A stretch of DNA of 63,565 bases, the filler included, from Deltaproteobacteria bacterium (GTDB taxonomy: Bacteria; CG2-30-53-67), in NCBI GenBank assembly GCA_013151235.1. It is 2 parts of 2 records of this genome, joined end to end, with 100 filler letters (N's around TTAATTAATTAA, not from the genome) between each part and the next. Parts side by side here need not be neighbours in the genome. Positions count along the whole stretch, not along the records: positions 31,813 to 63,565 come from JAADIO010000052.1; 1 more part is not named here. One strand, 5' to 3'. The position numbers and the translations under genes were made by a program. This document shows, in pieces, positions 1 to 61,633 of the stretch. The notes beneath the pieces were generated by a model. That model searched no databases, had not been told where the DNA came from, and was given only the letters and a program-made list of their open reading frames with translations. Position 1 is the stretch's first letter; each line of letters opens with the position of its first letter.

Positions 1-98
1 ATTCCGTTCGTGTGGTTCGGAAAGTTTAATGGACCGTTCGTGGTGAGCCTGTCGAACCATGAACGGAATCCGGAAAACGACTTTTTACGACACCATCA
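1..98 (-). repeat. Partial copy of a ~205-bp palindromic MITE/REP-like element
   Basis: The reverse complement begins TGATGGTGTCGTAAAAAGTC...CCGGATTCCGTTCATGGTTCGACA and matches the starts of the copies at 21317 and 61306. Cut by the window edge. Confidence 0.8.
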
Positions 99-136
99 TT
101 TTTGCAGATCCGCATTCTTTTCACAAGAAGATTCCG

Positions 137-847
137 ATGAAAGAGAGAAAAGATCCCTGGTTTCCGAAAAAGGTCATTATCGCGCCCACCGACCCGATCT
201 ACAGTGCCGTACGGAGAGCCGGAGAGTCCTCCGGCCGGGACGGGAGGACGGCCCTCTTTCGGTATTGCCTTCTGCCTGCCTGCGGGAAAAAGACGGCTGC
301 GGCCGGACCGGCTCTCGGAGCACCGGCCGCAGCACTACTCATGGAACAGCTTGTTTCGAAAGGAGTCCGGGAGGTTCTGCTTTTCAGTGTCTGCGGCAGT
401 CTTGGCCCGGACCTGGAAATCGGTGACTTTTTTCTTCCCACCGGGGGGATCAGTGAGGAGGGGACATCCCACCTTTACCTGGAAGGCCCTGTTCCCCAAC
501 CATCAAAGAAACTCACGGAAAAGATCCGGACCGTCTGCCGGGCCCGGGAGTGGGAACTGAAGGAAGGAACCATCTGGACGACCGATGCCCCGGAACGGGA
601 GACACCGGAGAAAATTGCCCGATACCAAAAGGAAGGCGCATTCGCAGTAGATATGGAATTTACGGCCCTTGCAACAGTTGCTCATTATTACGGGATCGAG
701 TTTGCGGCACTGATGGTCATCTCCGATGAACGCCGGTCGGATGATACCCGGGTCGGGTTCCGAACCGGGAAGTTCCGAAAAAGATTGAGGGAGGGCGCTC
801 TCCTCTCCGTCGAAGCCGTCTCCTCATCGGCCCACCCTTACGCTTGA
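137..847 (+). CDS. Nucleoside phosphorylase family protein (PNP/UDP)
   Basis: Motifs GTIWTTDAP.RET and AVDMEFTAL, plus MVISD. Start set at ATG 137 because the upstream in-frame extension is repeat sequence. Confidence 0.8.
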   Translation: MKERKDPWFPKKVIIAPTDPIYSAVRRAGESSGRDGRTALFRYCLLPACGKKTAAAGPALGAPAAALLMEQLVSKGVREVLLFSVCGSLGPDLEIGDFFLPTGGISEEGTSHLYLEGPVPQPSKKLTEKIRTVCRAREWELKEGTIWTTDAPERETPEKIARYQKEGAFAVDMEFTALATVAHYYGIEFAALMVISDERRSDDTRVGFRTGKFRKRLREGALLSVEAVSSSAHPYA

Positions 848-945
848 TCCATATCCGGAAGGGGGTTGTCTGATGAAGAAGCGCAAGGTTGCCGAGTTTG
901 ACTCTATCTCCGCTGCGCCCTCTTTTCCACCTCGGGAAAGGACCA

Positions 946-1302
946 CTATTCATGAAGAATTCTCTTCAGGGCGTTTTTCATCTTCGTCAGGTCCGATGAC
1001 TTGACGATGTACTCTTCCGAGGCCCAGAGGGAAAAATCCTGTTTGTATTCCTCATAGGCCGAGCAGATGATCACGGGAATATCGCTCTCTTTCCGCTCCT
1101 TGATGAGCTTCAGCAGATTCACACCATCCATCCCGGGCATCTTGATATCAAGGATAATGGCATCCGGTTTACGGACGTCAAGCACTTCCAGCGCCTCATA
1201 CCCGTTGCTCGCCAGAAGGACATCATACCCTTCGTCCGTCAGTTCTTCCTTGTAGAGCGTTCGGATGTTCTCTTCGTCGTCAACAATCAGAATGGTTTTC
1301 AT
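946..1302 (-). CDS. Single-domain response regulator (receiver)
   Basis: ILIVDDEE, LDIKMPGMDG and conserved K in YIVKS. Confidence 0.95.
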   Translation of the reverse strand: MKTILIVDDEENIRTLYKEELTDEGYDVLLASNGYEALEVLDVRKPDAIILDIKMPGMDGVNLLKLIKERKESDIPVIICSAYEEYKQDFSLWASEEYIVKSSDLTKMKNALKRILHE

Positions 1303-1375
1303 TGCTCTCCCCTTTCGCGATAGAATACCTGGCCGAAATCCCTTCCAACATCGTTGGTGGTGGAATCGGACCGAC

Positions 1376-3820
1376 TCATGTGCTCCCCCGTTCCCGGGCT
1401 GAGAGCTTCAATGATGGACCTTCCCGCTCCTCGCCCACTTTGGCGGGCAACGTCACCAGAAAGGTCACCCCCACACCCGGATCGTTCTTGACCTGGATAT
1501 TACCACCATGCATCTCTACCACCCGATGGGTGATCGCAAGTCCGAGACCGGTCCCCGTATGTTTGGTGGTAAAAAAGGGATTGAAGATGTTGGTAATCAC
1601 ATCCTCCGGGATCCCCCCGCCCGTATCCTGCACGGAAATCACGACAGCCCCTTCGGTCTCATCACAGACACATTCGACGGTCAGGGTCCCTCCCTGGCTC
1701 ATCGCCTGCTGGGCATTGGACAGAAGGTTGATAAAGATCTGTTTGATCTGATTTGCATCGCCATGGACCTTCGGGATATTCTTTCCGATTTTCCTGACCA
1801 CCCGGATCCCGCAATCAATCAACCCCTCCTCCAGCACCTCCAGCCCATCGGAAAGCACCTCGGCCACATCGCATTCCTGAAAGACCGGTTCCGCCGAACG
1901 GGAAAACGCCAGAACCTCCTGCAGCACTTTCTCCAGACGGGCAACCTCCTTGACAATAATACGGGAATAACGTTTCTGAGGATTCTCCGGGTCCAGTTTT
2001 CCGTCAAGCCGCCGGGCAAATCCGCCGATGGAAACAAGAGGATTCCGGATCTCGTGGGCAATGCTCGCCGCCATCTCCCCCAAGGCCGCCATTTTTTCAG
2101 ACTGGATCAGGCGGTCCTGTAATTCCGTAAGGGAACGGTTGGCGTATTCCAGGTCGGAATAGACCCGGGCATTCTCAATGGCAAGCCCCGCCTGATTTGC
2201 GAAGAGTTCCAATCGCCTAAGATCCTCATTGGTGATCTCCCGCTTGTTGTACAGGTTATCAACGATGATCACCCCCACGACCCGGTCCTGCGAGATCAGG
2301 GGGACGGTGGCAAAGCTCTCAAACCCCATCGTTTCCAAGATTTCCGGATTGGTACGGGGGTCTTCCCATGCATTTTTGATATTGAACCCTTTTCGCTCCA
2401 GCACGGTCAGAACCATGATCCCCTGCCCGTATTCAACCGGAACCCGGATGCCTTTGGCCAATTGATCAAAACGGCTTCCCCGCCCTTCGACGGAAAATCC
2501 GACGGAGGAGATCCACTCCTTGAAACTCATATTCTTTGCACCGATCTCACTCCAGATCCGGTAGGCATCTTCGCCGCTGTCCGGGCCGACTCCGAGCATC
2601 CCCTGGAGGGTATTGGTCTTCTCATTAACCAGCAGAAGAACGGCACGATTGAAATTCAGTCCTCCACCGAACGTGACCGCCTTCAGGATGATCTGCAAAA
2701 GTTGATCGAGGTTCATGGTGGTATTCATGGCGTTGCTGATCTCGTAAAGGATGGCAAAATCATTGGCCCGTTTCGTATTCTCCCTCCGGAGGCGTTCCGC
2801 CCGCTCAAAGTTTCTGGCATTCTCCACCACCATCGCCCCCTGGTTGGCAACGGCCATGAGCAGATGGAGATCATCCTGATGGAAGGGGACGAACGTCCCG
2901 GCGGCATCGGTCTTCTCATGGAGCGACAGGGTCCCGATCACCCGCTCTTTGACGATCAGGGGAACGCAGAGGATGGAAGCAAAAAGCCGCTCGCTGGGAA
3001 GGAGATTCATCTCGCTCCGGTCCGGATCATTGATCATGCAGGGACTCCCGTCCCGGGCCACACAACCGGTCACCCCCTCTCCCAGGGGAACCATGGTACG
3101 GGAGATCAGATCGGGATCCGGATAGAGGCCGTACATCGATTTCACCTTAAGCATCCGATCCTCGTCGTCAAGGAGGTGAAGAATCGCTCCGCCGGCACCG
3201 ATCAGTTCGCTGCTCTTCCGGGTCATGAGGCCAATCAGTTCCTGGAATTCCAGAGTCGAGGTCAGGGCACGACCGAGATCGTAGAGAGCAACCAGTTCCT
3301 CGTACTGCTTGGAGACATCCAGGTAGAGCTGGGCATTCCGGACACTGCCGCTAATCCCGTCGGCAATGGAAAAGAGCAGGTGAATCTCATTTTCCGTAAA
3401 GGCCCTCGCCTCAATGGTCCAGACATCAATTACACCGAGGCACTTTCCCAAATAGAGGATCGGGGCGGAAATCATGGAGCAATACTTCTCTTCCCCGCAG
3501 CCGGGAAAGTCCCGGCGCCGATCGTCCTGACGAATGTCCCGGATGGCCACCGGCGATTTTTCCGCAGCAACCCAGCCGGTGATCCCTTCGCCGACATTCA
3601 GGGAGATCTCATTGATGCTCTCCGGATTGAGCCCAACGGCCGCCTTCATCGTCAGGCATGCGCGATTCCGGCGCATCAAATAGATGGCGCAGGCATCAAA
3701 GTGCATCTTCTCCACGATCTCTTCCACGACCTGGTTCAGCCGCTCATGAAGATCAAGAGTGGAATTACTGATCTTCAGAATGTCCCGGAGAAGTTCAAAT
3801 TCAATGATGCTTTTGTCCAT
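1376..3820 (-). CDS. Multi-GAF-domain sensor histidine kinase
   Basis: Three GAF-like repeats, H-box AHEIRNPL, N-box and G-boxes (DTGGG, GTGLGL). Confidence 0.93.
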   Translation of the reverse strand: MDKSIIEFELLRDILKISNSTLDLHERLNQVVEEIVEKMHFDACAIYLMRRNRACLTMKAAVGLNPESINEISLNVGEGITGWVAAEKSPVAIRDIRQDDRRRDFPGCGEEKYCSMISAPILYLGKCLGVIDVWTIEARAFTENEIHLLFSIADGISGSVRNAQLYLDVSKQYEELVALYDLGRALTSTLEFQELIGLMTRKSSELIGAGGAILHLLDDEDRMLKVKSMYGLYPDPDLISRTMVPLGEGVTGCVARDGSPCMINDPDRSEMNLLPSERLFASILCVPLIVKERVIGTLSLHEKTDAAGTFVPFHQDDLHLLMAVANQGAMVVENARNFERAERLRRENTKRANDFAILYEISNAMNTTMNLDQLLQIILKAVTFGGGLNFNRAVLLLVNEKTNTLQGMLGVGPDSGEDAYRIWSEIGAKNMSFKEWISSVGFSVEGRGSRFDQLAKGIRVPVEYGQGIMVLTVLERKGFNIKNAWEDPRTNPEILETMGFESFATVPLISQDRVVGVIIVDNLYNKREITNEDLRRLELFANQAGLAIENARVYSDLEYANRSLTELQDRLIQSEKMAALGEMAASIAHEIRNPLVSIGGFARRLDGKLDPENPQKRYSRIIVKEVARLEKVLQEVLAFSRSAEPVFQECDVAEVLSDGLEVLEEGLIDCGIRVVRKIGKNIPKVHGDANQIKQIFINLLSNAQQAMSQGGTLTVECVCDETEGAVVISVQDTGGGIPEDVITNIFNPFFTTKHTGTGLGLAITHRVVEMHGGNIQVKNDPGVGVTFLVTLPAKVGEEREGPSLKLSARERGST

Positions 3821-39776: not shown

Positions 39777-42317
39777 ATGTCACAGGATCCGGTTTGCAAC
39801 ATGGAGGTTTCGAGCGATTCCTCCAATCACTTCCACCACGAAGGGCAGGAGTATTACTTCTGCAGTGAACACTGCCTGCACAAGTTCAAAGAAAACCCGG
39901 ATGAGTTCGTAAAAACGGGGTCTTCCCTCGATCCGGTCTGCGGGATGGAGGTTTCGGACGATTCCTCCAATCACTTCCGCCACGAAGGGCAGGAGTACTA
40001 CTTCTGCAGCGAGCACTGCCTGAACAAGTTTAAAGAAAACCCGGATGGGTTCGTGAACAAGGCCCCTTCCGCGGAAACAGGCGGTGGAGCCGGCACCTAC
40101 ACCTGCCCGATGCACCCGGAGGTGATGCAGGACCACCCGGGTTCCTGCCCCAAGTGCGGGATGGCACTGGAACCGATGGTCGCTCCGGTTATGACGTCCG
40201 CAACCGCATATACCTGCCCGATGCACCCGGAGGTGATGCAGGACCATCCCGGCCCCTGCCCCAAGTGCGGCATGGCATTGGAACCGGTGACGGTGCAGGC
40301 CGAGGAGAAGAACGAAGAACTGATCTACATGAGCCGACGTTTTTGGGCCGGTCTCGTATTGACGATCCCCGTTTTCGTTCTCGCCATGGTTGCCGACCTG
40401 CTCCCGTCGTGGCTGCCGGCCGGCCTTTCCATGCACACGGTTCAATGGATCGAGTTTCTCCTGGCGACACCGGTCGTGCTGTGGGGCGGGTGGCCCTTCT
40501 TTGTCCGGGGTGTGCAGTCGGTCAGGACCTGGAACCTGAACATGTTTACATTGGTCGGTCTCGGCATCTCGGTCGCATGGGGATACAGTGTGGTAGCGCT
40601 TTTGTTCCCCGGGATCTTCCCGGCCGTCATGCGGAGTGACGCAGGCCTGGTCTCCGTCTATTTCGAGGCCGCGGCGGTGATCACGGTCCTGGTGCTGCTC
40701 GGACAGGTACTGGAACTGCGCGCCCGTTCCCGGACGAACGCCGCGATACAGATGCTCCTCGGCCTCGCTCCGAAGACGGCCCGTATCGTGCGGAAGGACG
40801 GGACCGAAGAAGATATCCCCCTGGAGGATGTGAAGCCGGGTGACACCCTGCGTGTGCGTCCCGGCGAGAAGATTCCCGTGGACGGCACGGTACTCGAGGG
40901 GGAAAGCAATGTCGATGAATCGATGGTCACCGGGGAGCCGATCCCTGTGGCAAAGTCGGCCGGGGAGAAACTGATCGGTGCGACGGTCAACGGGACGGGT
41001 GGCCTCCTGATGCGTGCGGAGAAGGTTGGCTCGGACACCCTCCTTGCACAGATCATCCGGATGGTGGCCGACGCGCAGCGTTCCCGGGCGCCGATCCAGA
41101 AGCTGGCCGACGTGGTCGCGGGTTATTTCGTGCCCGCGGTGGTTGCTATATCTTTACTCACATTTTTTATCTGGTGGGGTGTGGGGCCGCAACCGCGCCT
41201 GGCCCACGCGGTCATCAACGCCGTCGCGGTCCTGATCATCGCATGCCCCTGCGCGCTCGGTCTTGCCACACCGATCGCCATCATGGTGGGAACCGGCCGG
41301 GGTGCCATGGCCGGGGTCCTGATCAAGAACGCCGAGGCCCTCGAGATTATGGAAAAGGTCGATACCCTCGTCGTGGACAAGACCGGCACGTTGACGGAAG
41401 GGAAACCGAAGCTGGTCGCCGTACGCACCGAGGCGGGATTCACGGAGGACGAGGTGCTCCGCATGGCCGCCGGGCTCGAACGTGCGAGCGAACACCCCCT
41501 GGCGGAGGCGATCGTGGCCGGTGCGGAGGAGAAGGGAGTCGAACCGTCAAAAGCGGAAAACTTCCAGTCCGTAACCGGCAAGGGGGTTACGGGAGAAGTC
41601 GACGGGCACAGGGTCGGGATCGGAAATGTCAAGCTGCTGGAAGATTTGGGCATTGACCCGGGAGCGTTGCCTCAGGAGGCGGACCGACAGCGTGCCGAAG
41701 CGAAGACGGTGATGCTGGTTGCCGTGGACGGCAAGGCGGCGGGGCTGATCGCTGTCGCCGATCCGATCAAGGAATCGACGGCCGAAGCCATTCGCGATCT
41801 CCATGCAGAGGGGATACGGGTCGTCATGCTGACCGGTGACAGTCGGGCCACGGCAGAGGCCGTTGCCGGCAAACTGAAAATCGACGAGATACACGCCGAG
41901 GTCCTGCCGGAACAGAAGTCGGAGGTGGTGAAACGGCTCCAGGCGGAAGGGCGTATCGTCGCCATGGCGGGGGACGGGATCAACGACGCCCCGGCGCTGG
42001 CGCAGGCGCAGGTCGGAATTGCCATGGGGACCGGAACGGACGTGGCGATGGAGAGCGCGGGGGTGACACTGGTCAAGGGGGATCTGAGGGGGATCGTCCG
42101 GGCAAGGCGACTGAGCCGGGCCACCATGCGGAACATCCGGCAGAACCTCTTCTTCGCCTTCATCTATAATTCCGCGGGGGTGCCGGTTGCGGCCGGGATC
42201 CTCTATCCCTTCTTCGGGATCCTGTTGTCGCCGATCATCGCCGCTGCGGCCATGAGCTTCAGCTCGGTCTCGGTGATCAGCAATTCGCTGAGGCTGCGGA
42301 ATGTGCAACTCAACTAA
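39777..42317 (+). CDS. copA: Cu(I)/Ag(I) P1B-1 ATPase with 2 YHS and 2 heavy-metal-binding domains
   Basis: CPC, DKTGT, YN and MxxSS motifs; N-terminal DPVC..FCS..C twice and YTCPMHP..CPKCGM twice. Confidence 0.93.
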
Positions 42318-42357: not shown

Positions 42358-43431
42358 ATGGAACGGGATCCGGTATGCAACATGGAGGTCAAAGAGGACT
42401 CGGCCCTGACTGTGGAACGGGAGGGAAAGACCTACTTCTTCTGCTCCGAGGGGTGCCGGAAGAAATTCCTCCGGGGGTCCGGAAATACGCATGACAAAAA
42501 GGTCTACGACCTCCTGATCCTCGGGGGGGGACCCGCCGGCCTGACGGCGGCGGTCTATGCGGCGACCCTGCGGATGGAGGCCTTCCTGATCACCAAGGAC
42601 CTGGGGGGCCAGGCAGTCGACAGCACGCAGATCGAGAATTACATGGGGTTCGATTTTATTGCGGGGACCGACCTGGTGAAGAAATTTGAGGATCAGCTTC
42701 TCCATTCCCACTACATCGATCACCGGATCGGCGAGGTCCGGAAAGTCGTCCCGGACGGAGAGGTATTCCGGGTCACCGTGGATGAAGGAGAGACCTTCCG
42801 GGCCCGTGCGCTGATCCTCGCCACCGGCATGCGCCGCAGGAGGCTGGACGTCCCGGGGGAGGAAGCCCTGCAGCGGCAGGGGGTCTTCTACGGCAACATT
42901 CAGGATGCCTCCTTTGTCGAAGGGGCGGATGTGGCGATCGTGGGAGGGGGGAACTCGGCCCTGCAGATCGTAGAGACCCTTCATTCCGTGGTCGGGACGA
43001 TCCACCTGATCTGCAATTCCACCCTCAAGGCCGACCCGATCGTAATCGAGCGGGTCGAGGCCTTCCCCGATCTCGTCAAGCACGAAGGATACGAGGTCCT
43101 GGAAATCACCGGGGAGAACAGGGTGGAGGGGATCTCCATCCGAAACCGGAGCGGCGGTGAAGTGGAGCATCTTGCCGTGGGAGGGGTCTTCATTTCCATC
43201 GGGCTCTACCCGGACTCCTCCATCTTTGAGGGATTGGTGGATCGAAACAAACGGGGAGAGATCCGAATCGCCCCCGACTGCTCCACCTCCCGGCCGGGGA
43301 TCTTTGCCGCGGGGGACCTGACCGACGCCTACGGCAAACGGATCGTCATCGCCTCGGGAGAGGGGGCCAAGGCCGCACTTGCCGCTCGGGAATACCTTCT
43401 GAAGTTGTCCTCCGGCCCTGCGGCGTCATGA
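42358..43431 (+). CDS. YHS domain fused to thioredoxin-reductase-like flavoprotein lacking CxxC
   Basis: DPVC..FCS..C, then GGGPAG, ATG, GGGNSA and AAGD; YGNIQD in place of YCxxCD. Confidence 0.85.
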   Translation: MERDPVCNMEVKEDSALTVEREGKTYFFCSEGCRKKFLRGSGNTHDKKVYDLLILGGGPAGLTAAVYAATLRMEAFLITKDLGGQAVDSTQIENYMGFDFIAGTDLVKKFEDQLLHSHYIDHRIGEVRKVVPDGEVFRVTVDEGETFRARALILATGMRRRRLDVPGEEALQRQGVFYGNIQDASFVEGADVAIVGGGNSALQIVETLHSVVGTIHLICNSTLKADPIVIERVEAFPDLVKHEGYEVLEITGENRVEGISIRNRSGGEVEHLAVGGVFISIGLYPDSSIFEGLVDRNKRGEIRIAPDCSTSRPGIFAAGDLTDAYGKRIVIASGEGAKAALAAREYLLKLSSGPAAS

Positions 43432-43589
43432 AGGTACGTTACGGCCGGGTTACCATTCTGCTGGCGGGAATCCTTCTGGTCAGCCTGCTGCATTTTACCA
43501 CCAGCACCTCCGTCCACGGCTGGCATGTCTTTTTCAGGAAGCTCTATTTCATCCCCATCATCATGGCCGCTCCCGGTTGGAAGTGTTGA
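43428..43589 (+). pseudogene. Truncated N-terminus of a membrane sensor protein (probable histidine kinase)
   Basis: ATGA-coupled 53-aa ORF MKVRYGRVTILLAGILLVSLLHFTT...HVFFRKLYFIPIIMAA that stops just before the convergent Ehr operon. Confidence 0.55.
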
Positions 43590-43594
43590 TTTTC

Positions 43595-45721
43595 TTACGC
43601 AAATGATGCAACCGCAAGGAAGACGAGGAGTGCCAGGAGAGCGTACCCTGCATAGTTATTGATCCGGCCGTTGTGCATGCGGGCAAGCCGGCCGGCGATC
43701 CATTGTGCGGCGGCTGCCGGGGGATGTAGAATCAGGCGGTCGATCAGATGTACTTCCTCACGTTTCCGGCGGATTGCCACGCGGAAGTGCTCGGCGATGG
43801 TCTCGCTGCGGTTCACCACTCTGGGATGCAGGATCGCGTCAAAGATCACCCTCACGGGCTGGGCGAATCCGGTCGCCGTATAAGTCATCTCCGGCAGAAG
43901 GTGCCTGACTCCGCCGTCCCACCTGGGGCGGCGGACGACCCGGCGCCGTCCGGCAAAGACGAACCGTACGATGATTGCGCTGATACCGAGCAGGAAGATA
44001 AGGGTTAAAAACATGTACGAGGTGGACATGGCGAAGACGACGGGGTTTTTTGCTCCGCCGCGATGAAGGACCGCCAGGCCGCGGCCCGGGAGTATGCCCA
44101 AGCCGATCCGGGCGCCTAAATCGTGAAATTCGGAAGCGAAATCGGCAGGTAGTTGATCCGCGGGGGGATTTCCTGCAAAGAAGGGGGGGACGAGTGCGTC
44201 GGTGCCGCTCGCATTGGTGATCGGTAGCACGGCCCGGTCCACGGCAGGGATCACGTAGGTCGGAAGCACCCCCAGCGCCAGGCATACCAGTGCAAGGAAG
44301 GCCATAGAGGCAAGGGCCGACTTGCCGGTCTCCCGCGCGGTGGAGGCAGCCTTGGATCTGGGCATTCCCAGAAAGCCCATGGAGAAGGCCCGGACAAAAC
44401 AGGTGACGGCAAGTCCGGCGGTCAGCGCAAGACCGGCGCCTGCCGCCACAAAGGATATCTTGACACCGAGAGAGACCAGTTCCACGCTGCGCAGGAGTGA
44501 CTCGATCGTAAGCCATTCACTGACGAATCCGTTGAAAGGGGGCATGGCGGAAATGGAGAGTGTCCCGACCAGAACGAAAAGCCCGGTCCAGGGCATCTTT
44601 TTGAGCAGGCCGCCCAGGCGGTCGAGGCTCCGTGTTCCGGCAGCACTTTCCATGACCCCGGCCCCCATGAAGAGCAGGGTTTTAAAAACGGAATGGTTCA
44701 GAAGGTGATAGAGCGTTGCGACAAAGGCGATGGCAGCCGGGATCCGGTGACCGGTTGCAAGAAACAGAACACCGGCCCCAAGTGCGGTGGTGATGATCCC
44801 GGCGTTTTCGATGGAGCTGTGGGCCAGCAGCGTCTTGAAGTCGTCCTCAATGGTTGCATAGAGAATACCGATCAGGGCGGTGACCGATCCGGTAATGAGC
44901 ATGACGGCGCCGGTCCCGACCTGCGTAACCGGCAGCAGATCGGCAGTCACACGGATGATACCGTAGAGGCCGAGGTTCAATGTCGCTCCGGCAATCAGCG
45001 GTATGCATGCGGATGGAGCTGCGGTATAGGCTTGCGCGACCCAGAAATTCAAGGGGATCAATCCGGCTTTTACCCCGAATCCGATAAAGGAGAGGGCGAA
45101 AACGGTCCACCGTATGCCGTTTCCCAGGCCGGGGGCCGTTGTTCTCAATGCATCGAAGCTGAGTGCCCCGGAATGTACCGACAGTAACAGGAAGGCGGCC
45201 AGGACGGCAAGTGTACCCGCCTCGCCGGTGGCCAGCATGAGATACCCCGGACGCTCGCCGGCAACGGTGATCATCAGGTAGATGAGAATTGACATGATCT
45301 CCCAGGCCACGAGAAACAAAAATATATCCCCGGCGATAAGGACCAGGAGGATGGCGATTAACAGACCGAGGTACAGCGCGGCGAGGATGCCGCGATGACG
45401 TCCTTGATCGCAGCGTATTCGGTCGGCGGCGAAAATGGAAGCAGGCATGGCGACCAGAGCAGTGGCCACCAGGAAAAAAGCCGAGAGGTGATCAACGGTT
45501 ATGGTCAACTCCCCTGTGCCGGGAAGGGTCCAGAGCGAGGCATGGAAAGGGCCGGCGGCGAAGAGGGCGCCTGTGCCGTAGATCAGCAGCGTCAAAGAAC
45601 CGAGTCCGCCGAAGCCGGCCAGCGCAAAGGGGGATCTCTTTTCCGGCAGCAAGAGTACCGCCGTGATTCCCAGGGAATAGAGTCCGAAGGTGATGATCAG
45701 TAACTGGCCGGGATCGGTCAT
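43595..45721 (-). CDS. Ehr/Hyf antiporter-like membrane subunit (HyfB-like)
   Basis: WEIMS, GVKAGLIP, LAHSSIENAG, NHSVFKTLLF, PPFNGFVSEW. Confidence 0.9.
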   Translation of the reverse strand: MTDPGQLLIITFGLYSLGITAVLLLPEKRSPFALAGFGGLGSLTLLIYGTGALFAAGPFHASLWTLPGTGELTITVDHLSAFFLVATALVAMPASIFAADRIRCDQGRHRGILAALYLGLLIAILLVLIAGDIFLFLVAWEIMSILIYLMITVAGERPGYLMLATGEAGTLAVLAAFLLLSVHSGALSFDALRTTAPGLGNGIRWTVFALSFIGFGVKAGLIPLNFWVAQAYTAAPSACIPLIAGATLNLGLYGIIRVTADLLPVTQVGTGAVMLITGSVTALIGILYATIEDDFKTLLAHSSIENAGIITTALGAGVLFLATGHRIPAAIAFVATLYHLLNHSVFKTLLFMGAGVMESAAGTRSLDRLGGLLKKMPWTGLFVLVGTLSISAMPPFNGFVSEWLTIESLLRSVELVSLGVKISFVAAGAGLALTAGLAVTCFVRAFSMGFLGMPRSKAASTARETGKSALASMAFLALVCLALGVLPTYVIPAVDRAVLPITNASGTDALVPPFFAGNPPADQLPADFASEFHDLGARIGLGILPGRGLAVLHRGGAKNPVVFAMSTSYMFLTLIFLLGISAIIVRFVFAGRRRVVRRPRWDGGVRHLLPEMTYTATGFAQPVRVIFDAILHPRVVNRSETIAEHFRVAIRRKREEVHLIDRLILHPPAAAAQWIAGRLARMHNGRINNYAGYALLALLVFLAVASFA

Positions 45722-46476
45722 TGAGCGTCTCCTCCTCCCGTAGATGCAGCGGGCTTCATGGGTTGCACCGCCTCCTTGCGTCCGGCAAGGATCAGCAGGC
45801 CGTACAGGATGGCCGTCGGCGGGGGTGGACAGCCCGGGATTTCAAGATCAACCGGCAGGATGTCGGCGACCCCGGCGCCGGTCACGAAACCGGGTCCGAA
45901 CAGCCCGCCGCTCAGTGCGCAACTCCCGACGGCCGCAACCCGTTTCGGCTCGGGCATGGCCTCGTAAGCCTTCATCAGGGGGGTCTTCATCTGGTCGGTA
46001 ACCGGTCCGACCACCAGGAGGATATCAGCCTGCCGGGGTGTCGGGGTGATGAAAAAACCGAGCCGGTGCATATTATAGAAGGGATTGTTCAGGAGCCTGA
46101 CCTCGTTGAGGCAGGCCCCGCAGTCGCCGGCATCGACGATGCGGATGTGTAGTGATTGTCTGAATGCTTTCGGGAAAACCGATGAGGTTTTCTCAAGCTT
46201 CGCCCATTCGAATCCGGTCTCCCACCGGATCGGTTTCGCAGTCTCCCGTGCACATCGATAACAGTGGATACACCGTGCACGCTCCACAACGATCCGATCA
46301 TCCGCCTGCTGCAACGCACCTGCCGGACATAATGCGGTCAACCCTGCGCTGTCGGTCTTCCCGCAGACCGTATCCTGCGGCATTCCCGGGGAGGTCCCGG
46401 GGGTATCCTCCATTTTCGCCGGGTAACGAGTGGTGACCACCCCGGTTTGCAGGCCCTTGAGTATCCACCGGCTCAT
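45718..46476 (-). CDS. Ehr small subunit (HyfI/NuoB-like) with N-terminal ferredoxin-like segment
   Basis: CIHCYRC, then DAGDCGAC, GSCA, PGCPP. Confidence 0.88.
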   Translation of the reverse strand: MSRWILKGLQTGVVTTRYPAKMEDTPGTSPGMPQDTVCGKTDSAGLTALCPAGALQQADDRIVVERARCIHCYRCARETAKPIRWETGFEWAKLEKTSSVFPKAFRQSLHIRIVDAGDCGACLNEVRLLNNPFYNMHRLGFFITPTPRQADILLVVGPVTDQMKTPLMKAYEAMPEPKRVAAVGSCALSGGLFGPGFVTGAGVADILPVDLEIPGCPPPPTAILYGLLILAGRKEAVQPMKPAASTGGGDAQ

Positions 46477-46520
46477 ATTAAATGCCTCCTGATGATTCCA
46501 TAAAAAAGCCCCTCTGCCGG

Positions 46521-47579
46521 TTACGCCTTCGTCGTGATGTACAGGCCGGCGGCTGCAAAAAAAGCGATATACCCCATGATCAGGAACAGGGCTGTAAAGG
46601 ATGCGGTATCGTTTGTGTTTTCATCGGTGATATAGAGTTTGTAGGCAATCATGTTTGCCAGGGATCCGAAGATACTGCCGAACCCCCCGACGTTCGTTCC
46701 CCAGAGCAGGGCTTTCCAGTTTGATGTGAACTTTGCGAAGAGGAGCGTTGACGGGACATTGCTCATGATCTGCGAGGCGAGGGCGGAAAAGAGGAATACA
46801 TGCCCGGCGTGCTTGATCTCGGATGCCATCAGAATCTTCAGGTTTTCAGCAAGACCGAAGAAAAAGAAGAAGCTGAAGAGGAGGAAGTAGTCCACGTGCA
46901 GGGCTTCCCGGTCGAAGAGAAGTGCATAAACGACAACGATCCCTGAGGCGCGAATCGGCAGGATGTGCAGTACGGAGAGGAGGACGATGATCAGGAGGAT
47001 CCCGTGGACGCTGGACCTGGCCGTATTGTGCATTGCCTCGGTGCTTTCCGGCGTTGCCTGTAAATGAATCGTGAGGGACAGGATAACCGGGAATAGAATC
47101 ATCAGGGAAAAGGGGGCGATGGAGGTGATGAATTCCGCAGGGGACAGGTTGTAGAACCAGTAGATATAAAGATTCTGAGGGTTCCCGAAAGGGGTCAGGG
47201 CCGATCCTGCGTTTGCGGCCAGGGCCTCCAGAATCACGAGAAGGCCCCTCCTGTCGATGTTGAGCGCCAGGGTCAGCGGGACAATCACAAGGAGGGCGAT
47301 ATCATTTGTAACGACCATCGAAAGAAAGAATGTCGTGACGATCAATTTGAGGGGGACCCCTCTTCCTTTCTCGATGCTTCGGGCAAACCTCGATATAATC
47401 CCACTCTGCTGCAAGCCCTTGACCGCTATAAAGAGGACAAAGAGGATGAAGAGGACCTGCATTTCCCGGGGCGAGGGGACGGGCGGATGTCCCGTATAGA
47501 TGGATGTCAGGAGGAATCCAGTGCCGGAAGCGAGGAGCAACCATTCTTTTAGGATAAAATCGAACAATGCGTCTTTCAT
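46521..47579 (-). CDS. ArsB/NhaD/SLC13 (YbiR-like) ion-transporter superfamily permease
   Basis: VTNDIAL, AANAGSALTPFGNPQNL, SNVPST, NVGGFGSIFGSLAN. Confidence 0.85.
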   Translation of the reverse strand: MKDALFDFILKEWLLLASGTGFLLTSIYTGHPPVPSPREMQVLFILFVLFIAVKGLQQSGIISRFARSIEKGRGVPLKLIVTTFFLSMVVTNDIALLVIVPLTLALNIDRRGLLVILEALAANAGSALTPFGNPQNLYIYWFYNLSPAEFITSIAPFSLMILFPVILSLTIHLQATPESTEAMHNTARSSVHGILLIIVLLSVLHILPIRASGIVVVYALLFDREALHVDYFLLFSFFFFFGLAENLKILMASEIKHAGHVFLFSALASQIMSNVPSTLLFAKFTSNWKALLWGTNVGGFGSIFGSLANMIAYKLYITDENTNDTASFTALFLIMGYIAFFAAAGLYITTKA

Positions 47580-47612
47580 GTTGTCCCGGATCAGCCTTTC
47601 GTAATGAAGTCT

Positions 47613-49193
47613 TTACCTGTCGTTTTCGGCCACGGAGAGCCCGAACGTCGCCAGGATGATCGGGAAGTCCTGGAATGCAAAGTTCTCGGCCGCCAAGTGA
47701 AATCCGTGCCAGTTCGTGAAGGAGGGGGTGATCAGCCGGTACCTCTTCACCGTCCCTGCATCGTCGATGCGGATCCAGTGCCACGTTGCTCCGCGCGGGG
47801 CCTCGACCCCCGCCAGTGCAACCCCCTCTGCGGGTTTGCAGGGAACCCGGACCGGACCATTCCGCAGCGCCCCGGTTGCCTGCTCCATGAGATGGACCGC
47901 CTCCCTTGCCTCGGTGAGGAGTACCCGAAGGCGCGCATAGCCGTCCCCTTCATCCTCGCAGGGGAGGCGGAACTTGAAGGCATCGTAGGCCGCATAGGGC
48001 TGCATCCTCCTGAGATCGTTGCAGCAGCCCGACCCGCGGGCCACGGGACCTACGAGCCCATGGTTGCGGGCCTCCTCTCTGGTGACGATCCCCACTTCCT
48101 CGATCCGGTCGAGGAAACTGCTGGTGTTGATCAGTATTTTTTCAATTCCGTTCAGGCGCCGGACAATACCCCCGGCCCGGGCTACGGTCTTGCCGCATGC
48201 CCGGTCATCCAGGTCGCGGCTTAAACCGCCGGGGACAGCCATGCCGAAGAGATAGCGATGGCCGGTGAGACTGCCGGAAAGCCTGAGCGCCTCTTCCTCC
48301 AGGATCGCCGTCTGGTTTGCGGCGACGACCAGCCCGGTGGAGTTGCAGATTCCTGCGACGGTTCCCAGGTGATGGCGGAACCGTTCCAGTTCGGAGAGGA
48401 AGACCCTTAATACGCCGGCGCGTTCCGGTACCTCCGTGTCGCCGAGCTGTTCCACGGCCATGCAACCGGCGAGAGCGTGGGAGAAGGCCGTGGTGCCGGC
48501 GAACCGCTCGACCATGAGGAGCGCATCATCGTATGCGCGCCCTTCCGCTCTTTTCTCCACACCGCGGTATTTGAAAAAGAGCCGGGGAAAGATCCGAATC
48601 ACTTCTTCTCCGATGGTCTCCAACTGGAAATGGACGGATTCCGCATCGCCGGAGAAGATGGGACCGACCGGCATGATGAAGGCGCCGGGTGCATCCACGA
48701 TCCTTCTCGGCCGCCAGTTCCGACTTGGCCTGCGGTTGGCAAGGGTGGCATCGATATCAAATCCGTTGCGCATCGGTTCCACCCCTTCCTGCCAGGCATC
48801 GTCATGGAGGATAAAGTCTCCCAGGCGGGGATGCCCTTCAAATACCAGACCGAAGAGGTCCTCCGCCTCCCGCTCATGCCAGTCCGCGGCGTGGACCTCT
48901 CCGCAGATGCTTTTGCATAGACGTTTTTTTATGGGAGTATCGGTCCTTAACAGGATACGCCCCATCTCACCCTGCCCGGCGAAGAGGTAAAAAAGATCAC
49001 ACCGCTCGGCATTTTCTTCCACGATCAATCCGGCAAAATGATAGTTCCGCCGGTTGGATAGCCAGCCGCAGACCTTGGGCAGTTCGTCATTTCCGCACAC
49101 GATTTCGGTGATCCCATTCCGGATGCCGGTAACTTTTTCAATTGCAGCGGGCCAGAGGAGAGACGCTTGCTTCGTTACCTGCTCGATATTCAT
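47613..49193 (-). CDS. Ehr large subunit (HyfG/HycE-like NuoC+D fusion) lacking NiFe cysteines
   Basis: EREAEDLFG, RGVEK, VEAPRG; ERFAGTT and SVAENDR in place of RxCxxC and DPCxxC. Confidence 0.9.
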   Translation of the reverse strand: MNIEQVTKQASLLWPAAIEKVTGIRNGITEIVCGNDELPKVCGWLSNRRNYHFAGLIVEENAERCDLFYLFAGQGEMGRILLRTDTPIKKRLCKSICGEVHAADWHEREAEDLFGLVFEGHPRLGDFILHDDAWQEGVEPMRNGFDIDATLANRRPSRNWRPRRIVDAPGAFIMPVGPIFSGDAESVHFQLETIGEEVIRIFPRLFFKYRGVEKRAEGRAYDDALLMVERFAGTTAFSHALAGCMAVEQLGDTEVPERAGVLRVFLSELERFRHHLGTVAGICNSTGLVVAANQTAILEEEALRLSGSLTGHRYLFGMAVPGGLSRDLDDRACGKTVARAGGIVRRLNGIEKILINTSSFLDRIEEVGIVTREEARNHGLVGPVARGSGCCNDLRRMQPYAAYDAFKFRLPCEDEGDGYARLRVLLTEAREAVHLMEQATGALRNGPVRVPCKPAEGVALAGVEAPRGATWHWIRIDDAGTVKRYRLITPSFTNWHGFHLAAENFAFQDFPIILATFGLSVAENDR

Positions 49194-49197
49194 CGTG

Positions 49198-50649
49198 TTA
49201 TCCTCCAAGCGTTGTTGCGGCAAGCGTGATCAGCTTCTCAAGGGGACCCGGGATGAAAATTCCCAGGACAAGTATCGGTACTGCGGCGAATATCATGGTT
49301 GTTCTGCAACTCAACGGAAGGGGCTCAGGCCTTTCTCCCTCCCCTTCGATTGTCGGGGCCGACCCGAAAACCATACGGCTGACATGATTCATGATGGCGA
49401 AAAAGGCCACGGCGATAAAGAGGAGCAGCAACCCCACGGCGACATACTCCCCCCGGTGCAGCCCGGCTTTCAGGATGGAGAACTCGCTCATGAAGATCGC
49501 GAAAGGGGGCGCCCCGGCAATGGCCAGCCCCCCGAAAAGGAGAGCGACACCGGCACCGGGGGCCCTGGTGATCAGGCTGCGTACCTCAGCGATCTCCCGG
49601 GTGCCCGTCAGGAGCAGAACACTTCCTGCGGCGTAGAAGCAGAACGATTTTGTAACGGCGTGGGCCGTGATCTGCAGCATTGCAGCGGAAGACGCCGAAA
49701 CCCCTCCTAGGCCGACGGCGGTCAGGATGATTCCCATGTGCTCAATGGTGGAGAAGGCGAAGAGCCGTTTGTAGTCCTTGACCTGGACCAGCAGAAAGGC
49801 CGCCGTCCCCGCGGAGATCAGCCCGAAGACCAGCATCCAGGTATCCGGACTGACACCAGGTGCATTCCGCAGGATGGGGACCAGGCGGAGAATCGCGTAG
49901 AGGACGGCGGTGGTTTTTACGCCCGAGAGAAGTGCGCACACGGGTGTCGGCGCCTGGCTGTGGGCATCGGGAAGCCAGGTATGGAGCGGCACCAGTCCGG
50001 CCTTGGCGCCGAACCCGAGCAGAATCAGGGCAAAGGCCGTCCGCAACAGCACGGGTGACATACGGGGGGCGCCTGCCGCCAGCCCGGCCCAGGTATAGTG
50101 TTCGATACCGGCCCTTTGTGCCGCCCAGAAAAGGATCAGGAAACCGAGCAGAGCGATGGCCGCACCCATGACCGTAAGCACAACGTATTTCCACGCAGCC
50201 TCGAGGGCTTCGTGAGAGTTCTCAAACCCGACCAGCAGCACGGAAAACAGGGTGGTCAGCTCCACGGCGATCCAGATGATATTCGGCTCCTGGACCAGGG
50301 GCACCATGATCATGGAAAAGACAAAGAGGTTGAAATTTAGATAGTATCGACGCAGGTCGGCCCGGTTGTGATGCTTCATGTAGCCGATGGAAAAGAGAGC
50401 GGCCGTCATGTTTACAAAGGCGACCGGGATGAGAATGAGAGCGCCCGGTGCATCCAGGGCGATCCAGCCGGGGATTGCCGCCACGATGTGTCCGGGAGAT
50501 GTGATGACATTCAGGGCTGCCCGCACCGACAAGGCCAGCGTGGCCATCGCCGCGATCAGGGCGATGGTCGACTCGATACGTTCCCTGCGTGTGAGAAAAG
50601 AGAGTAGTGCGGCGGCCAGCGGTATCGTTATCAGAACAAAGAGGATCAT
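49198..50649 (-). CDS. Ehr antiporter-like membrane subunit (HyfF-like)
   Basis: WIAVELTT, EAAWKY, KAGLVPLHTWLPDAHSQAP, AFSTIEHMG. Confidence 0.92.
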   Translation of the reverse strand: MILFVLITIPLAAALLSFLTRRERIESTIALIAAMATLALSVRAALNVITSPGHIVAAIPGWIALDAPGALILIPVAFVNMTAALFSIGYMKHHNRADLRRYYLNFNLFVFSMIMVPLVQEPNIIWIAVELTTLFSVLLVGFENSHEALEAAWKYVVLTVMGAAIALLGFLILFWAAQRAGIEHYTWAGLAAGAPRMSPVLLRTAFALILLGFGAKAGLVPLHTWLPDAHSQAPTPVCALLSGVKTTAVLYAILRLVPILRNAPGVSPDTWMLVFGLISAGTAAFLLVQVKDYKRLFAFSTIEHMGIILTAVGLGGVSASSAAMLQITAHAVTKSFCFYAAGSVLLLTGTREIAEVRSLITRAPGAGVALLFGGLAIAGAPPFAIFMSEFSILKAGLHRGEYVAVGLLLLFIAVAFFAIMNHVSRMVFGSAPTIEGEGERPEPLPLSCRTTMIFAAVPILVLGIFIPGPLEKLITLAATTLGG

Positions 50650-51341
50650 TTGTCCGGCTCCTCCCTCAGTTTGGAGAGCCTTCCCACGGCGGTGTTTCCG
50701 ACTCGTTTATGGACGGCGCCGGTCAGCACACCCACCATGAAGGTCAATATGAGAACGTCAAAGGCCAGTGCCAGTTCGGCGATCAGGGGCAGGTTGGGGG
50801 CGATTGCCACCCCGGCGAAGAACGCCCCGTTTTCCATTGCCAAAAGCCCCAGGAGCTGCGGGACCGCCTCGCGGCGGACGGTCAGCGTATAGGCGCCGAG
50901 AAGGAGCCCGGCCAGGCCGATGGGGACATTAATGCGGACGGTTCCTCCTGCGGCGGCGGCCTTGATCCATGGAAGGCTGAAGAAATATGCAGCAATCGTC
51001 AGGATCAGAGCGATAATCAGTGAAGTCGGGATCTCGACCGCCTGCGAGATCTCCCTCCGTGTGTAGACCTCTTCACTCAACATGCGGCGCAGGAGCCACG
51101 GGAGGAACCAGACCTTCGTGAAGAGGTTGATCGTTCCCACGGCCATGAGATGCATGGAAAAAGGACGGAGGCCCAACAGAAACGCCGCCGCGACCAGACA
51201 GAGCGATTGGAGGATAAAGAACCGGAGGCAGGCGCGCACCTGGCGCGTGGCCACGATTCCGAAGGTGGCAATGATAAAAACACCTCCGGCAAGGGAGTCC
51301 AGGTTGGTCATGAGAGGCGTAATGTTTTGAAAGACCGCCAT
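50646..51341 (-). CDS. Ehr membrane subunit (HyfE-like)
   Basis: Hydrophobic protein with LLAMENG and ELALAFD motifs; operon position. Confidence 0.85.
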   Translation of the reverse strand: MAVFQNITPLMTNLDSLAGGVFIIATFGIVATRQVRACLRFFILQSLCLVAAAFLLGLRPFSMHLMAVGTINLFTKVWFLPWLLRRMLSEEVYTRREISQAVEIPTSLIIALILTIAAYFFSLPWIKAAAAGGTVRINVPIGLAGLLLGAYTLTVRREAVPQLLGLLAMENGAFFAGVAIAPNLPLIAELALAFDVLILTFMVGVLTGAVHKRVGNTAVGRLSKLREEPDK

Positions 51342-51352
51342 TCTCCGCCTCC

Positions 51353-52303
51353 TTAATGCGTGAAGACACTGGTCAGCATTGCGATGACTGCGATCACGAA
51401 TGCGGCGCTCATGAATTCACTGATCCGGAAGAGTCTCAGCTTCGCCAGTGATGACTCGATGAGAACAAGGAGCATGATAAAAAGGAGGATCTTGAACAGG
51501 ACCAGCGGAACGGCAGTGAGGATCGCACCCCACTCCAGGGTTGAAGCGAGCCCCCAGGGCGTCACGAGGACGTTCAGCAAAACGATCATGAGCACGAAAA
51601 ACTTCATCCAGCCGCCCCACTTCATGAGCGCGGCGCTCCGTCCCGAGTATTCCAGGTCCTTTGATTCATCGATCATGGCCAGTTCGAAATGACCGCTGGG
51701 ATTGTCGACGGGGATGCGCCCCTTCTCGGCCAGGATGAGCATGACGAAGGCGACCAGGAGCAGGAGATGCGACGGCTCGAAAAAATTGGCCGGGGGCGTC
51801 ACCCATTTCTGCTGTACGATAAAGGGGATGGTGGAATCGGCTACGAAGGAGACGGTAAAAAATACGATGAGAAAGATCGGTTCCGTCAGGAAACCAACCA
51901 TGCGGGTGCGGCTTGCCCCCATCGGGCCGTAAGGGTTTGCCGTATCCGCTGCCGCCAGTGCGGCAAAAAATCCGCCCAACGTTAGGACGAAACCGGCGCC
52001 GACCATGTCGGCCATGAATGCCCAGAAGAGAGGATAGTCGGTCAGGACGGGGATCAGGAGCGTCACAAAGATGGGGGTGATAAAGACGATGTAGGGAGCC
52101 ACACGAAAGATCCATGAACTCTCCTTCGGTACGATTTCGTCTTTGGAGAAAAGCTTTCGGAGATCCCGGTAGGGCTGGAGGATGCTCGGCCCCTTCTTGG
52201 ACTGTATAATCTCCTTCAGTCGGTTCAGCACCCCCGCCGCCAGGGGGGAGAATCCCATGACCATGAGTACCTGCAGGAGATTGAATAGGATACGCTTGCT
52301 CAT
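51353..52303 (-). CDS. Ehr membrane subunit (HyfC/HycD, NuoH-like)
   Basis: GPSILQPYRDLRKLFSK, GASR, EKGRIPVDNP, ELAMI..LEYSG. Confidence 0.92.
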   Translation of the reverse strand: MSKRILFNLLQVLMVMGFSPLAAGVLNRLKEIIQSKKGPSILQPYRDLRKLFSKDEIVPKESSWIFRVAPYIVFITPIFVTLLIPVLTDYPLFWAFMADMVGAGFVLTLGGFFAALAAADTANPYGPMGASRTRMVGFLTEPIFLIVFFTVSFVADSTIPFIVQQKWVTPPANFFEPSHLLLLVAFVMLILAEKGRIPVDNPSGHFELAMIDESKDLEYSGRSAALMKWGGWMKFFVLMIVLLNVLVTPWGLASTLEWGAILTAVPLVLFKILLFIMLLVLIESSLAKLRLFRISEFMSAAFVIAVIAMLTSVFTH

Positions 52304-52381
52304 GCCCGGCTCCTTCTCCCTGAAGATGAGTTTCGGTCCCCGAGTCGTACGGTCCGTCAAGCGGTGTATGAAGGCGGGCAC

Positions 52382-52405
52382 AAAAAAACCCGCTTTGCGG
52401 CGGGC
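52382..52405 (-). terminator. Intrinsic terminator of the riboswitch expression platform
   Basis: GCCCGC-CGCAAA-GCGGGT plus U-tract in the Ehr leader. Confidence 0.8.
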
Positions 52406-52452
52406 TCCAGACCGGACAGTACCGACTCCCCCGCCACAGAACAACCTCCGAG

Positions 52453-52503
52453 ACAGGAGTCATTAGCCGGATTCAGGCGATTGTACGGGAGACTCCATCC
52501 CCA
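52453..52503 (-). ncRNA. Fluoride riboswitch (crcB motif)
   Basis: GGGGAUGGAGUCUCCC-GUAC-AAUC-GCC..GGC-UAAUGACUCCUGU, with P1, P2 and GGAGUC/GACUCC pseudoknot matching the consensus. Confidence 0.92.
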
Positions 52504-52674
52504 CATTTTTAATTTCGTACGGTACCATGATATGAAAAAAAGTCAAGACTTTTCCCCGGCCTCTGACTCTGTGGGTTAAGCAAAGATCTTGAAGTATGCT
52601 CCCGCGTATATCCTATGGGGTTGAAAAGAGGCTGAAGGAGAAAGGATCAATCCCCATCTTTGCAGAAAATGTGA

Positions 52675-52730
52675 TTGACAGCGGGCTCCTTTTTTTTGTA
52701 CTTTAACGGTTGAGCATATGTTCAACCGTT
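52675..52730 (+). promoter_or_regulatory. Promoter and ArsR-type operator
   Basis: TTGACA-18-TACTTT, followed by palindrome AACGGTTGAGCATATGTTCAACCGTT. Confidence 0.75.
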
Positions 52731-52746
52731 TCAATGAATGGTTGCC

Positions 52747-61535: not shown

Positions 61536-61633
61536 GGGAGAGGATTCGGTGCTGGTGTCCGGCCCGGACTTCAAATCCGGTGGGGCGGCTTAACACCCCG
61601 CCTGGTGGGTTCGATTCCCGCCCTCTCCCGCCA
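61536..61633 (+). tRNA. selC: tRNA-Sec (UCA)
   Basis: 8-bp acceptor GGGAGAGG/CCTCTCCC, anticodon loop CT-TCA-AA, long variable arm, GCCA end. Confidence 0.95.

Follow-up and report, generated by a model that had tools for sequence, protein, structure and literature searches.

A YbiR-Family Permease Gene Between the Large- and Small-Subunit Genes of a Fluoride Riboswitch-Linked, Ehr-Type Operon

According to the available text of a review of the field (PMC11139923), about 15% of Fluc (CrcB) genes and about 30% of CLC-F genes are under the control of a fluoride riboswitch. Genes annotated as 'formate hydrogen lyase' have also been linked to this RNA: their association with the crcB motif is in print in the accessible portion of Weinberg 2010 (PMC2864571), and the same review cites Baker 2012 for their pairing with the fluoride riboswitch. 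An operon of this kind is encoded in a 63,565-nucleotide (nt) stretch of DNA (the window, meaning the whole stretch that was analysed) from the Deltaproteobacteria bacterium assembly GCA_013151235.1, where the genes of an Ehr-type, hydrogenase-like complex lie behind a fluoride riboswitch in the order NuoH/HyfC-like, HyfE-like, HyfF-like, large subunit, permease, small subunit and HyfB-like. The fifth of these seven genes, encoding a permease of the YbiR family, is the subject of this work. It had been proposed, in the original prediction, as a candidate for a further class of fluoride exporter or, alternatively, as a Na+/H+ homeostasis partner of Ehr.

The reading favoured here, with moderate confidence, is that an ArsB-like permease of the efflux type, coupled to protons and acting on a small inorganic solute, is encoded by a gene that was inserted in this lineage and is transcribed by read-through from the riboswitch, and that the permease serves as an accessory or passenger rather than as a dedicated fluoride exporter. 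In the mechanism proposed, a YbiR-family gene would have been inserted between the large- and small-subunit genes of a fluoride-switched, Ehr-like operon and would since have been retained, with a codon usage like that of its neighbours. Its product would act as a proton antiporter that exports a small polar inorganic solute, such as a small ion or a species resembling a metalloid hydroxide. Since the gene appears to have neither a promoter nor a terminator of its own, it would be read through with the operon, and the permease would be expected to be made when fluoride rises.

Position of the Permease Gene in Ehr-Type Operons

Against Pfam, the product matched PF03600 (CitMHS; E 2.1e-22, 80.1 bits against a cut-off of 31.9, residues 32-283) as its sole family, with no match to either PF02537 (Fluc/CrcB) or PF00654 (CLC-F). 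No NCBIfam family model matched at E up to 0.001, and NCBIfam presumably includes a model for ArsB. The motifs on which the original prediction was built are all present in the translation, as VVTNDIA (T91-N92-D93), ANAGSALTPFGNPQN (residues 122-136) and MSNVPS (S273-N274-V275-P276). In a 115-sequence family alignment, they fall in the most conserved columns (D93, P130, P134 and Q135 in 115/115 sequences, N274 in 114/115), which identifies them as family signatures rather than products of chance.

The assignment to the YbiR-like permeases of the ion-transporter superfamily also stands, given PF03600 and the likeness to E. coli YbiR (b0818, 'putative transporter YbiR', itself a PF03600 protein), to which the window permease is 33% identical over 306 amino acids (E 2e-31). 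The two proteins have the motifs TND(V/I)AL, NAGS-LTP-GNPQN, SQ-ISNVPST and NVGGFG...GSLAN in common and measure 372 (E. coli) and 352 amino acids. They differ in that the window permease belongs to a tighter subgroup, of 60-71% identity, that extends across many phyla, and in that E. coli ybiR overlaps the stop codon of mntR and has neither a fluoride riboswitch nor Ehr neighbours. The family is large, with 2320 cluster representatives at E up to 0.001 and 359 at E up to 1e-30. Among the papers listed in a literature search, none gave a function for YbiR and none that mentioned both ybiR and fluoride was relevant, and the ESM Atlas gave only clusters named 'SLC13 family permease', with no lead on function. 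In E. coli K-12 (L158 5184-6766; labels in L denote individual loci), ybiR starts 4 nt before the end of the manganese regulator gene mntR, an overlap that makes the two genes look translationally coupled and that may be a lead to the substrate of YbiR.

As the original prediction stated, the permease gene lies between the large- and small-subunit genes, from which it is separated by 33 nt and 44 nt, respectively. It sits 4.9 kb downstream of the fluoride riboswitch and on the same strand. How unusual this position is can be seen in metagenome contigs, where a search with the large subunit gave 80 orthologous Ehr-like loci at 50-68% identity, the near-duplicates L085/L088, L119/L121, L127/L128 and L110/L111 among them. 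When tblastn was run with all of the operon proteins of the window, the order NuoH, HyfE, HyfF, large, small, HyfB was recovered throughout, sometimes with a second HyfB, and the permease was matched in 0/80 loci. In the 70 loci that hold both subunit genes, the gap from large to small subunit spans only -7 to 248 nt (median 23), and there is therefore no room for a gene between them. A small-subunit match is missing from 10/80 loci, nine of which end at or within ~280 nt of the large-subunit match, placing the small-subunit gene off the contig. The tenth, L091, is the sole locus whose large-subunit match stops early with sequence beyond, and it contains a DUF2167 gene and a peptidase M50 gene and no permease. 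The closest operon, L075, is 68-75% identical per protein, has a riboswitch directly in front and leaves 28 nt between the large- and small-subunit genes. Among the sequences searched, an insertion between these two genes is thus seen in this genome only.

It might be supposed from this position, between the genes of two peripheral-arm subunits, that the permease is a physical subunit of the Ehr complex. Gene position is all that speaks for such a role, which is extremely unlikely: each partner works without the other elsewhere in the material searched (no Ehr genes at 30 loci with a permease orthologue, no permease at the 80 Ehr loci), and the solved relatives ArsB, VcINDY and Pho90 are self-contained dimers, according to their structure titles and the accessible text of PMC13381914.

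Within the lineage of the window, the cluster as a whole is patchy. Thirteen genomes from the same genus, family or class yielded no permease orthologue, their best matches (E 4e-9 and weaker) being paralogues; the nearest match among 40 relatives, at 47% identity, belongs to another family; and the Ehr large subunit, too, lacks a close orthologue among those relatives (best 35-36%). The composition of the permease gene is that of its surroundings, with a G+C content at third codon positions (GC3) of 0.705 compared with 0.70-0.75 in the neighbours, and a codon-usage distance of 0.115 compared with 0.078-0.148 for the Ehr genes. Two traces of the gene's arrival were sought and rejected: recent transfer as judged by composition, for which GC3 and codon usage inside the range of the Ehr genes give no signal, and an insertion scar, for which the direct or inverted repeats flanking the gene amount to just 10-25 nt matches of a chance-like kind.

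The probable co-transcription of the permease gene under the riboswitch, also part of the original prediction, is supported as the most likely arrangement. On the minus strand from 43000 to 53200, a promoter scan restricted to sigma-70-type sites found no sigma-70-like promoter. The same interval contains 13 terminator-like sites, compared with 9.8 +/- 3.5 in shuffled sequences, and none of them is at a permease junction; the RNAs at the two junctions are no more stably folded than shuffled sequence (z +0.48 and +1.32). A search for sequencing runs that cover the region listed none, of RNA or otherwise. Because of the short gaps, the lack of a promoter or terminator and the unstructured junctions, transcription from the riboswitch-controlled start, behind an RF01734 aptamer and its expression platform, is most likely, to judge from the sequence.

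Alternatively, the permease could be expressed on its own, outside riboswitch control and unrelated to fluoride even in this genome. Such independence would be compatible with the upstream 33-nt spacer, in which there is only a weak ribosome-binding site (GGGA), and with the confinement of the promoter scan to one promoter type. It is nonetheless very unlikely, as the interval is devoid of promoter-like sites on the coding strand and of terminators at either junction; moreover, a terminator after the permease would presumably cut off the small subunit and HyfB, which the complex needs.

Predicted Structure and Likeness to ArsB

Prediction from the single sequence gave an unusable model (predicted local distance difference test, pLDDT, 42.9), and the model was taken instead from the 115-sequence alignment with AlphaFold (pLDDT 94.4; predicted template modelling score, pTM, 0.92). 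The tips of its two helical hairpins are formed by T91-N92-D93 and S273-N274, and its two broken helices are interrupted by loops at 128-133 and 298-306. As modelled, these form two inverted repeats of one hairpin and one broken helix each, which is the architecture of elevator-type secondary transporters.

The best Foldseek match of the model is ArsB from Leptospirillum ferriphilum (10tp_A, E 1.8e-8), to which the VIA alignment covers 346/352 residues at Z 30.6 and a root-mean-square deviation of 3.6 A. NaCT, NaS1, Pho90 and VcINDY are next by structure, at Z of about 27-29 (Z 24-31 to ArsB and these four over residues 1-352). By sequence, the order is different. A single-sequence search of solved structures gave 0 PDB matches, and a sequence-profile search gave six, all of them DASS proteins (VcINDY at E 3.4e-11 and Pho90 at E 1.3e-10 among them), ArsB not being included. 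Members of the DASS/SLC13 group (VcINDY, NaS1, NaCT, Pho90) are thus the only solved relatives detectable by sequence profile, and NCBI names some permease orthologues 'SLC13 family permease'. They differ from the permease at the hairpin tips, where the SNT motifs of VcINDY and NaCT read TND and SNV in the permease. These SNT motifs support substrate binding, and an Asp at the first hairpin tip is a feature of ArsB that is stated to be absent from Na+-dependent DASS proteins, according to the accessible text of PMC13381914.

The likeness to ArsB extends from the fold to the pocket. In a profile alignment to E. coli ArsB (probability 94.9%, E 4.4e-8), five permease/ArsB pairs are identical, namely N92/N111, D93/D112, N133/N158, N274/N337 and S306/S380, and the ArsB residues of these pairs are those that contact As(OH)3 or that lower resistance when mutated, in the available portion of a 2026 study (PMC13381914). 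Within the permease family, the five residues N92, D93, N133, N274 and S306 occur in 106, 115, 99, 114 and 110 of 115 sequences, respectively. Since the central pocket matches that of an arsenite/H+ antiporter, the permease is likely an exporter of a small polar inorganic solute.

The resemblance to ArsB has clear bounds. Overall identity is only 13-20%, the permease is ~75 residues shorter, and an arsenic-type gene context occurs at just 1/25 permease orthologue loci (L020). For proton coupling in ArsB, three aspartates (D112, D148 and D370) have been proposed together with K374, in the text of PMC13381914 that was available. D148, D370 and K374 align with N123, N296 and F300 of the permease, leaving D112 as the only one of the three aspartates that is kept; at position 296, 80 of the 115 family sequences have N, 19 have S and 15 have D. 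Conversely, Q135, D230 and Q270 are invariant in the YbiR family and are lacking in ArsB.

Two acidic residues of the membrane domain, D93 and D230, are thus invariant, a trait that would also suit a cation/H+ antiporter, either of the Na+/H+ (NhaD-like) type or of another. Such a protein might cooperate with the Ehr complex to keep pH and ion levels balanced during fluoride stress, for instance through conversion of a gradient that the complex has built. Several orthologues carry the automatic JGI name 'Na+/H+ antiporter NhaD/arsenite permease-like', and Na+/H+ antiporters are given as the second most common fluoride riboswitch-associated class in the review text available (PMC11139923). Against this proposal, which is unlikely, the alignment matches each residue of the pocket to the neutral-metalloid site of ArsB, and NCBIfam offered no model of any kind. 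Genomic context also argues against it: Ehr genes adjoin 0/30 of the permease orthologues, no PF00361 gene occurs among 104 neighbouring genes at 25 loci, and 80/80 orthologous Ehr operons do without the permease. A regular Na+/H+ homeostasis partnership with Ehr, the second option of the original prediction, is accordingly not supported.

Permease Orthologues and the Link to Fluoride

Of the candidates scored, 1222 proteins resemble the permease at E up to 0.001. The best 120 are 60-71% identical to it and are named from many phyla, mostly from vent and sediment metagenome-assembled genomes, and the closest are P0002 (71%) and P0004 (69%), on JGI contigs of 13 and 28 kb. When one genome per species was scanned, 30 permease loci were obtained, of which 29 are at 50-70% identity and the remaining one is at 35%. 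These derive from Gammaproteobacteria, Desulfobacterota, Chloroflexota, Calditrichia, Lentisphaeria, Campylobacterales, Actinomycetes and others, many again from vent or sediment assemblies, and 29/30 have >300 nt upstream of the match. One of them, in a metagenome-assembled genome of the Actinomycetes, also has a group I intron in its 23S rRNA gene (L017 6324-6690, plus strand).

An enrichment of homologues behind fluoride riboswitches had been named as a check on the exporter proposal. None was found: at the Rfam gathering score, 0/30 loci have a fluoride riboswitch, and with a more permissive model, for which seven riboswitches from this analysis were used, the only match (12.4 bits, E 0.36) lies within gcvP and on the wrong strand. 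Nor did tblastn with the seven proteins of the Ehr operon in the window find any Ehr gene in the flanks of the 30 loci. The surrounding genes were scanned at 25 of the 30 loci (four contig-end partials and the 35% match being left out), taking up to three open reading frames (ORFs) upstream and two downstream. The resulting 104 ORFs are heterogeneous and include tRNA synthetases, glycine cleavage genes (gcvT/gcvP) and ABC and TRAP transporters, with no Mrp-type or other PF00361 antiporter-like gene among them. The sole thematic hints are Acr3, ArsC, OEP and HlyD at L020, PHO4 and PhoU at L014, and TelA/YHS at L026. To judge from these genomic contexts, the fluoride response is not a general trait of the YbiR family.

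The link to fluoride belongs, instead, to the host operon. The permissive riboswitch model has at least one match in 47/80 Ehr loci. In 41 of these loci, the first gene is preceded by 300 nt or more of sequence; a riboswitch of at least 20 bits lies on the same strand within 1.5 kb upstream in 25/41, and in 30/41 at E up to 1. With the Rfam model, seven re-scanned loci contain 22 fluoride riboswitches at the gathering score, with up to five per 21-kb locus. Riboswitch-proximal ORFs other than those of the Ehr operon number 36 in the 80 loci and represent the classic fluoride regulon: MutS-like proteins (4), metallophosphatases (4), DUF190 (3), dynamin-like GTPases (3), AAA ATPases (3) and one each of CrcB, enolase, USP, ABC ATPase, HEAT-repeat protein, peptidase M20 and a glutamine-synthetase fragment, with 12/36 lacking any family match. 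PF03600 is found in 0/36. Beside the Ehr operon itself, crcB is present in 14/80 loci and DUF190 in 22/80; the window has neither. The riboswitch-Ehr pairing is, therefore, conserved and already published, and the window holds a copy that differs from other Ehr-type operons in its inserted permease and in its lack of an adjoining crcB or DUF190. A literature search joining the fluoride riboswitch with hydrogenase returned, in the portions of text available, no account of this operon type.

Elsewhere in the same genome, crcB (L001, contig C25, 1480-1863, plus strand) is followed by a DUF190 gene (1877-2593, plus strand) whose 238-amino-acid product has two DUF190-like halves, and two long CLC genes are also present. 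With the crcB-DUF190 pair in place, no exporter is missing from this genome. No riboswitch was found before its crcB with either the Rfam or the permissive model, so that the canonical exporter appears to be unregulated by a fluoride RNA while the Ehr operon is regulated.

It is tempting to ask whether the permease could nonetheless be a third molecular class of fluoride exporter, expelling F- or a fluoride complex in exchange for H+ and recruited where related operons carry crcB. Its gene lies inside a riboswitch-controlled operon, is intact and matches its neighbours in codon usage, and it occupies a locus without the crcB or DUF190 that adjoin 14 and 22 of the 80 related operons. A precedent for a non-dedicated transporter also exists, as BenE-I is described, in the accessible text of PMC13104614, as aiding fluoride tolerance in a crcB mutant of Pseudomonas putida. 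The crcB-like slot, the retention of the gene and this example of a moonlighting transporter are the reasons for keeping a small probability for a new exporter class, which is, however, distinctly unlikely.

The distribution of the gene weighs against such a class. Apart from the placement of one permease copy, in one genome, under a fluoride riboswitch, nothing likens it to Fluc (CrcB) or CLC-F, from which it is separated by an unrelated fold and family and by a riboswitch linkage that does not recur among its orthologues. Were these orthologues riboswitch-controlled at the 15% rate of Fluc genes, a count of 0/30 would be expected less than once in 100 for independent loci, which these are not fully. 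Such a gene is also absent from the 80 Ehr operons and from the 36 other riboswitch-proximal ORFs. The genome has a crcB of its own, and crcB is found as well in 3/5 genomes with a permease orthologue, such that the two genes are not complementary in distribution. An invariant Asp at a hairpin tip would be odd for an anion site. Finally, E. coli K-12 carries ybiR, and its crcB deletion mutant is reportedly hypersensitive to fluoride. Overall, the proposal of another fluoride exporter class is not supported by these data.

The favoured reading, of an ArsB-like accessory or passenger permease, has its own difficulties, and the following points weigh against it. Its substrate and direction of transport are read from the predicted fold and pocket; two of the three candidate proton-coupling aspartates of ArsB, and their lysine, are not kept; the family's own invariant D230, Q135 and Q270 suggest that the substrate may differ from that of ArsB; and neither an ArsB model nor any other in NCBIfam was matched. 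Furthermore, an intact gene with all of its invariant residues and with neighbour-like codons points to an insertion that is not fresh and has been retained, which would fit a selected role in the fluoride response. The permease gene also takes a place where a fluoride channel is often encoded, given how frequently crcB or DUF190 adjoins related operons and the lack of both here. In 2/5 genomes with a permease orthologue (of unassessed completeness), no CrcB match was obtained. Lastly, the case for co-transcription is one of gene anatomy.

As found, the locus matters little: it is a single-genome variant of an operon type whose connection to fluoride was published in 2010-2012, and the gene inserted into it comes from an uncharacterised, though already known, transporter family with a member in E. 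coli. Taken together, however, an ArsB-like pocket and one fluoride-regulated copy suggest two cheap hypotheses for the substrate of YbiR, namely a metalloid or fluoride. If YbiR were a proton antiporter that expels fluoride, free or in a complex, it would constitute a third prokaryotic fluoride exporter class, and this would be the first function assigned to YbiR. Also of use is the control work on independent metagenome data, which confirmed cysteine-less, hydrogenase-like complexes as a core part of fluoride islands that hold as many as five riboswitches within ~21 kb.

The Host Operon and Its Surroundings

The features of the operon are collected in Table 1. Of the window, only the second half (31813-63565, as opposed to 1-31812) maps to contig C19 of the assembly, and the window contains 146 N, so that it is composed of more than one contig. 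The aptamer, which was recovered in a search of the whole genome as well, has one mismatch in P3 in the alignment. The hairpin of the expression platform was not listed by the automatic terminator scan; in the predicted fold of the platform RNA, a competing hairpin occupies the 5' half of the terminator stem. The first gene of the operon starts at ATG 52303, after GGAGAAGGAG, and its product of 316 amino acids is equal in length to those of orthologous loci. The large-subunit translation contains RFAGTTAFSH and a C-terminal GLSVAENDR, which we take to be the sites of two Cys pairs in group 4 NiFe hydrogenases. Without cysteines at either of these presumed metal sites, the protein is assigned to the Ehr type and not to the hydrogenases. 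An AGGAGG ribosome-binding site is retained before the small-subunit gene.

Table 1. Positions of the permease gene, the other operon features and an additional RNA gene in the window
Feature	Position	Strand	Remarks
Fluoride riboswitch aptamer	52447..52511	-	RF01734; 36.1 bits (gathering score 34)
Expression platform, intrinsic-terminator shape	52382..52404	-	5-bp G+C hairpin (CCCGC / GCGGG, loop CGCAAA), then seven T; read directly
NuoH/HyfC-like membrane subunit, first operon gene	51353..52303	-	PF00146, E 7.5e-31
HyfE-like membrane subunit	50646..51341	-	NF008556 (hydrogenase 4 membrane subunit), E 1e-16, below cut-off
HyfF-like antiporter-type subunit	49198..50649	-	PF00361, E 6.3e-49; hydrogenase 4 subunit F models, E 8e-101, below cut-offs
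Large subunit, fused NuoC+NuoD / hydrogenase-large-subunit-like (Ehr type)	47613..49223	-	PF00346, PF00329, PF00374
YbiR-family permease ORF	46521..47579	-	ATG start, 352 amino acids; PF03600
NuoB-like small subunit	45718..46476	-	N-terminal ferredoxin-like stretch; PF01058, E 7.4e-25
HyfB-like antiporter-type subunit, last operon gene	43595..45721	-	PF00361, E 1.5e-38; NF005086 (hydrogenase 4 subunit B), E 5e-148, below cut-off
Selenocysteine tRNA gene	61536-61629	+	73.3 bits

Several observations concern fluoride riboswitches and Ehr genes beyond the window operon. A second and stronger fluoride riboswitch of the same genome (L002, contig C36, 1501-1568, minus strand, 48.1 bits) precedes the gene of a dynamin-like GTPase (ORF 1414..2, minus strand); the three dynamin-like GTPases behind riboswitches in the Ehr loci are those of L142, L144 and L154. 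In the metagenome contigs, fluoride islands were seen at L086, L092, L108, L142 and L154, where 3-5 RF01734 aptamers at the gathering score lie within ~21 kb around an Ehr-like operon, each in front of a different gene (MutS-like, metallophosphatase, DUF190, CrcB, enolase or an ORF of no family). L086, which has four fluoride riboswitch matches, also holds a c-di-AMP riboswitch (1341-1484, minus strand, 57.5 bits). A second, more distant pair of large and small subunits, at 33-44% identity, occurs a few kb upstream of the fluoride-switched Ehr operon at L151 (611-4086) and L152 (98-1104).

Within the window, the gene that follows the HyfB-like gene (42358..43431) lies on the opposite strand. 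Together with 39777-42317 and 53106-55013, also on the plus strand, it makes up the flanks of the operon, which comprise two P-type ATPases and a fusion of YHS with a pyridine-nucleotide-disulphide oxidoreductase. One of the P-type ATPases carries YHS and HMBD metal-binding domains, and the flanks represent a metal-handling neighbourhood.

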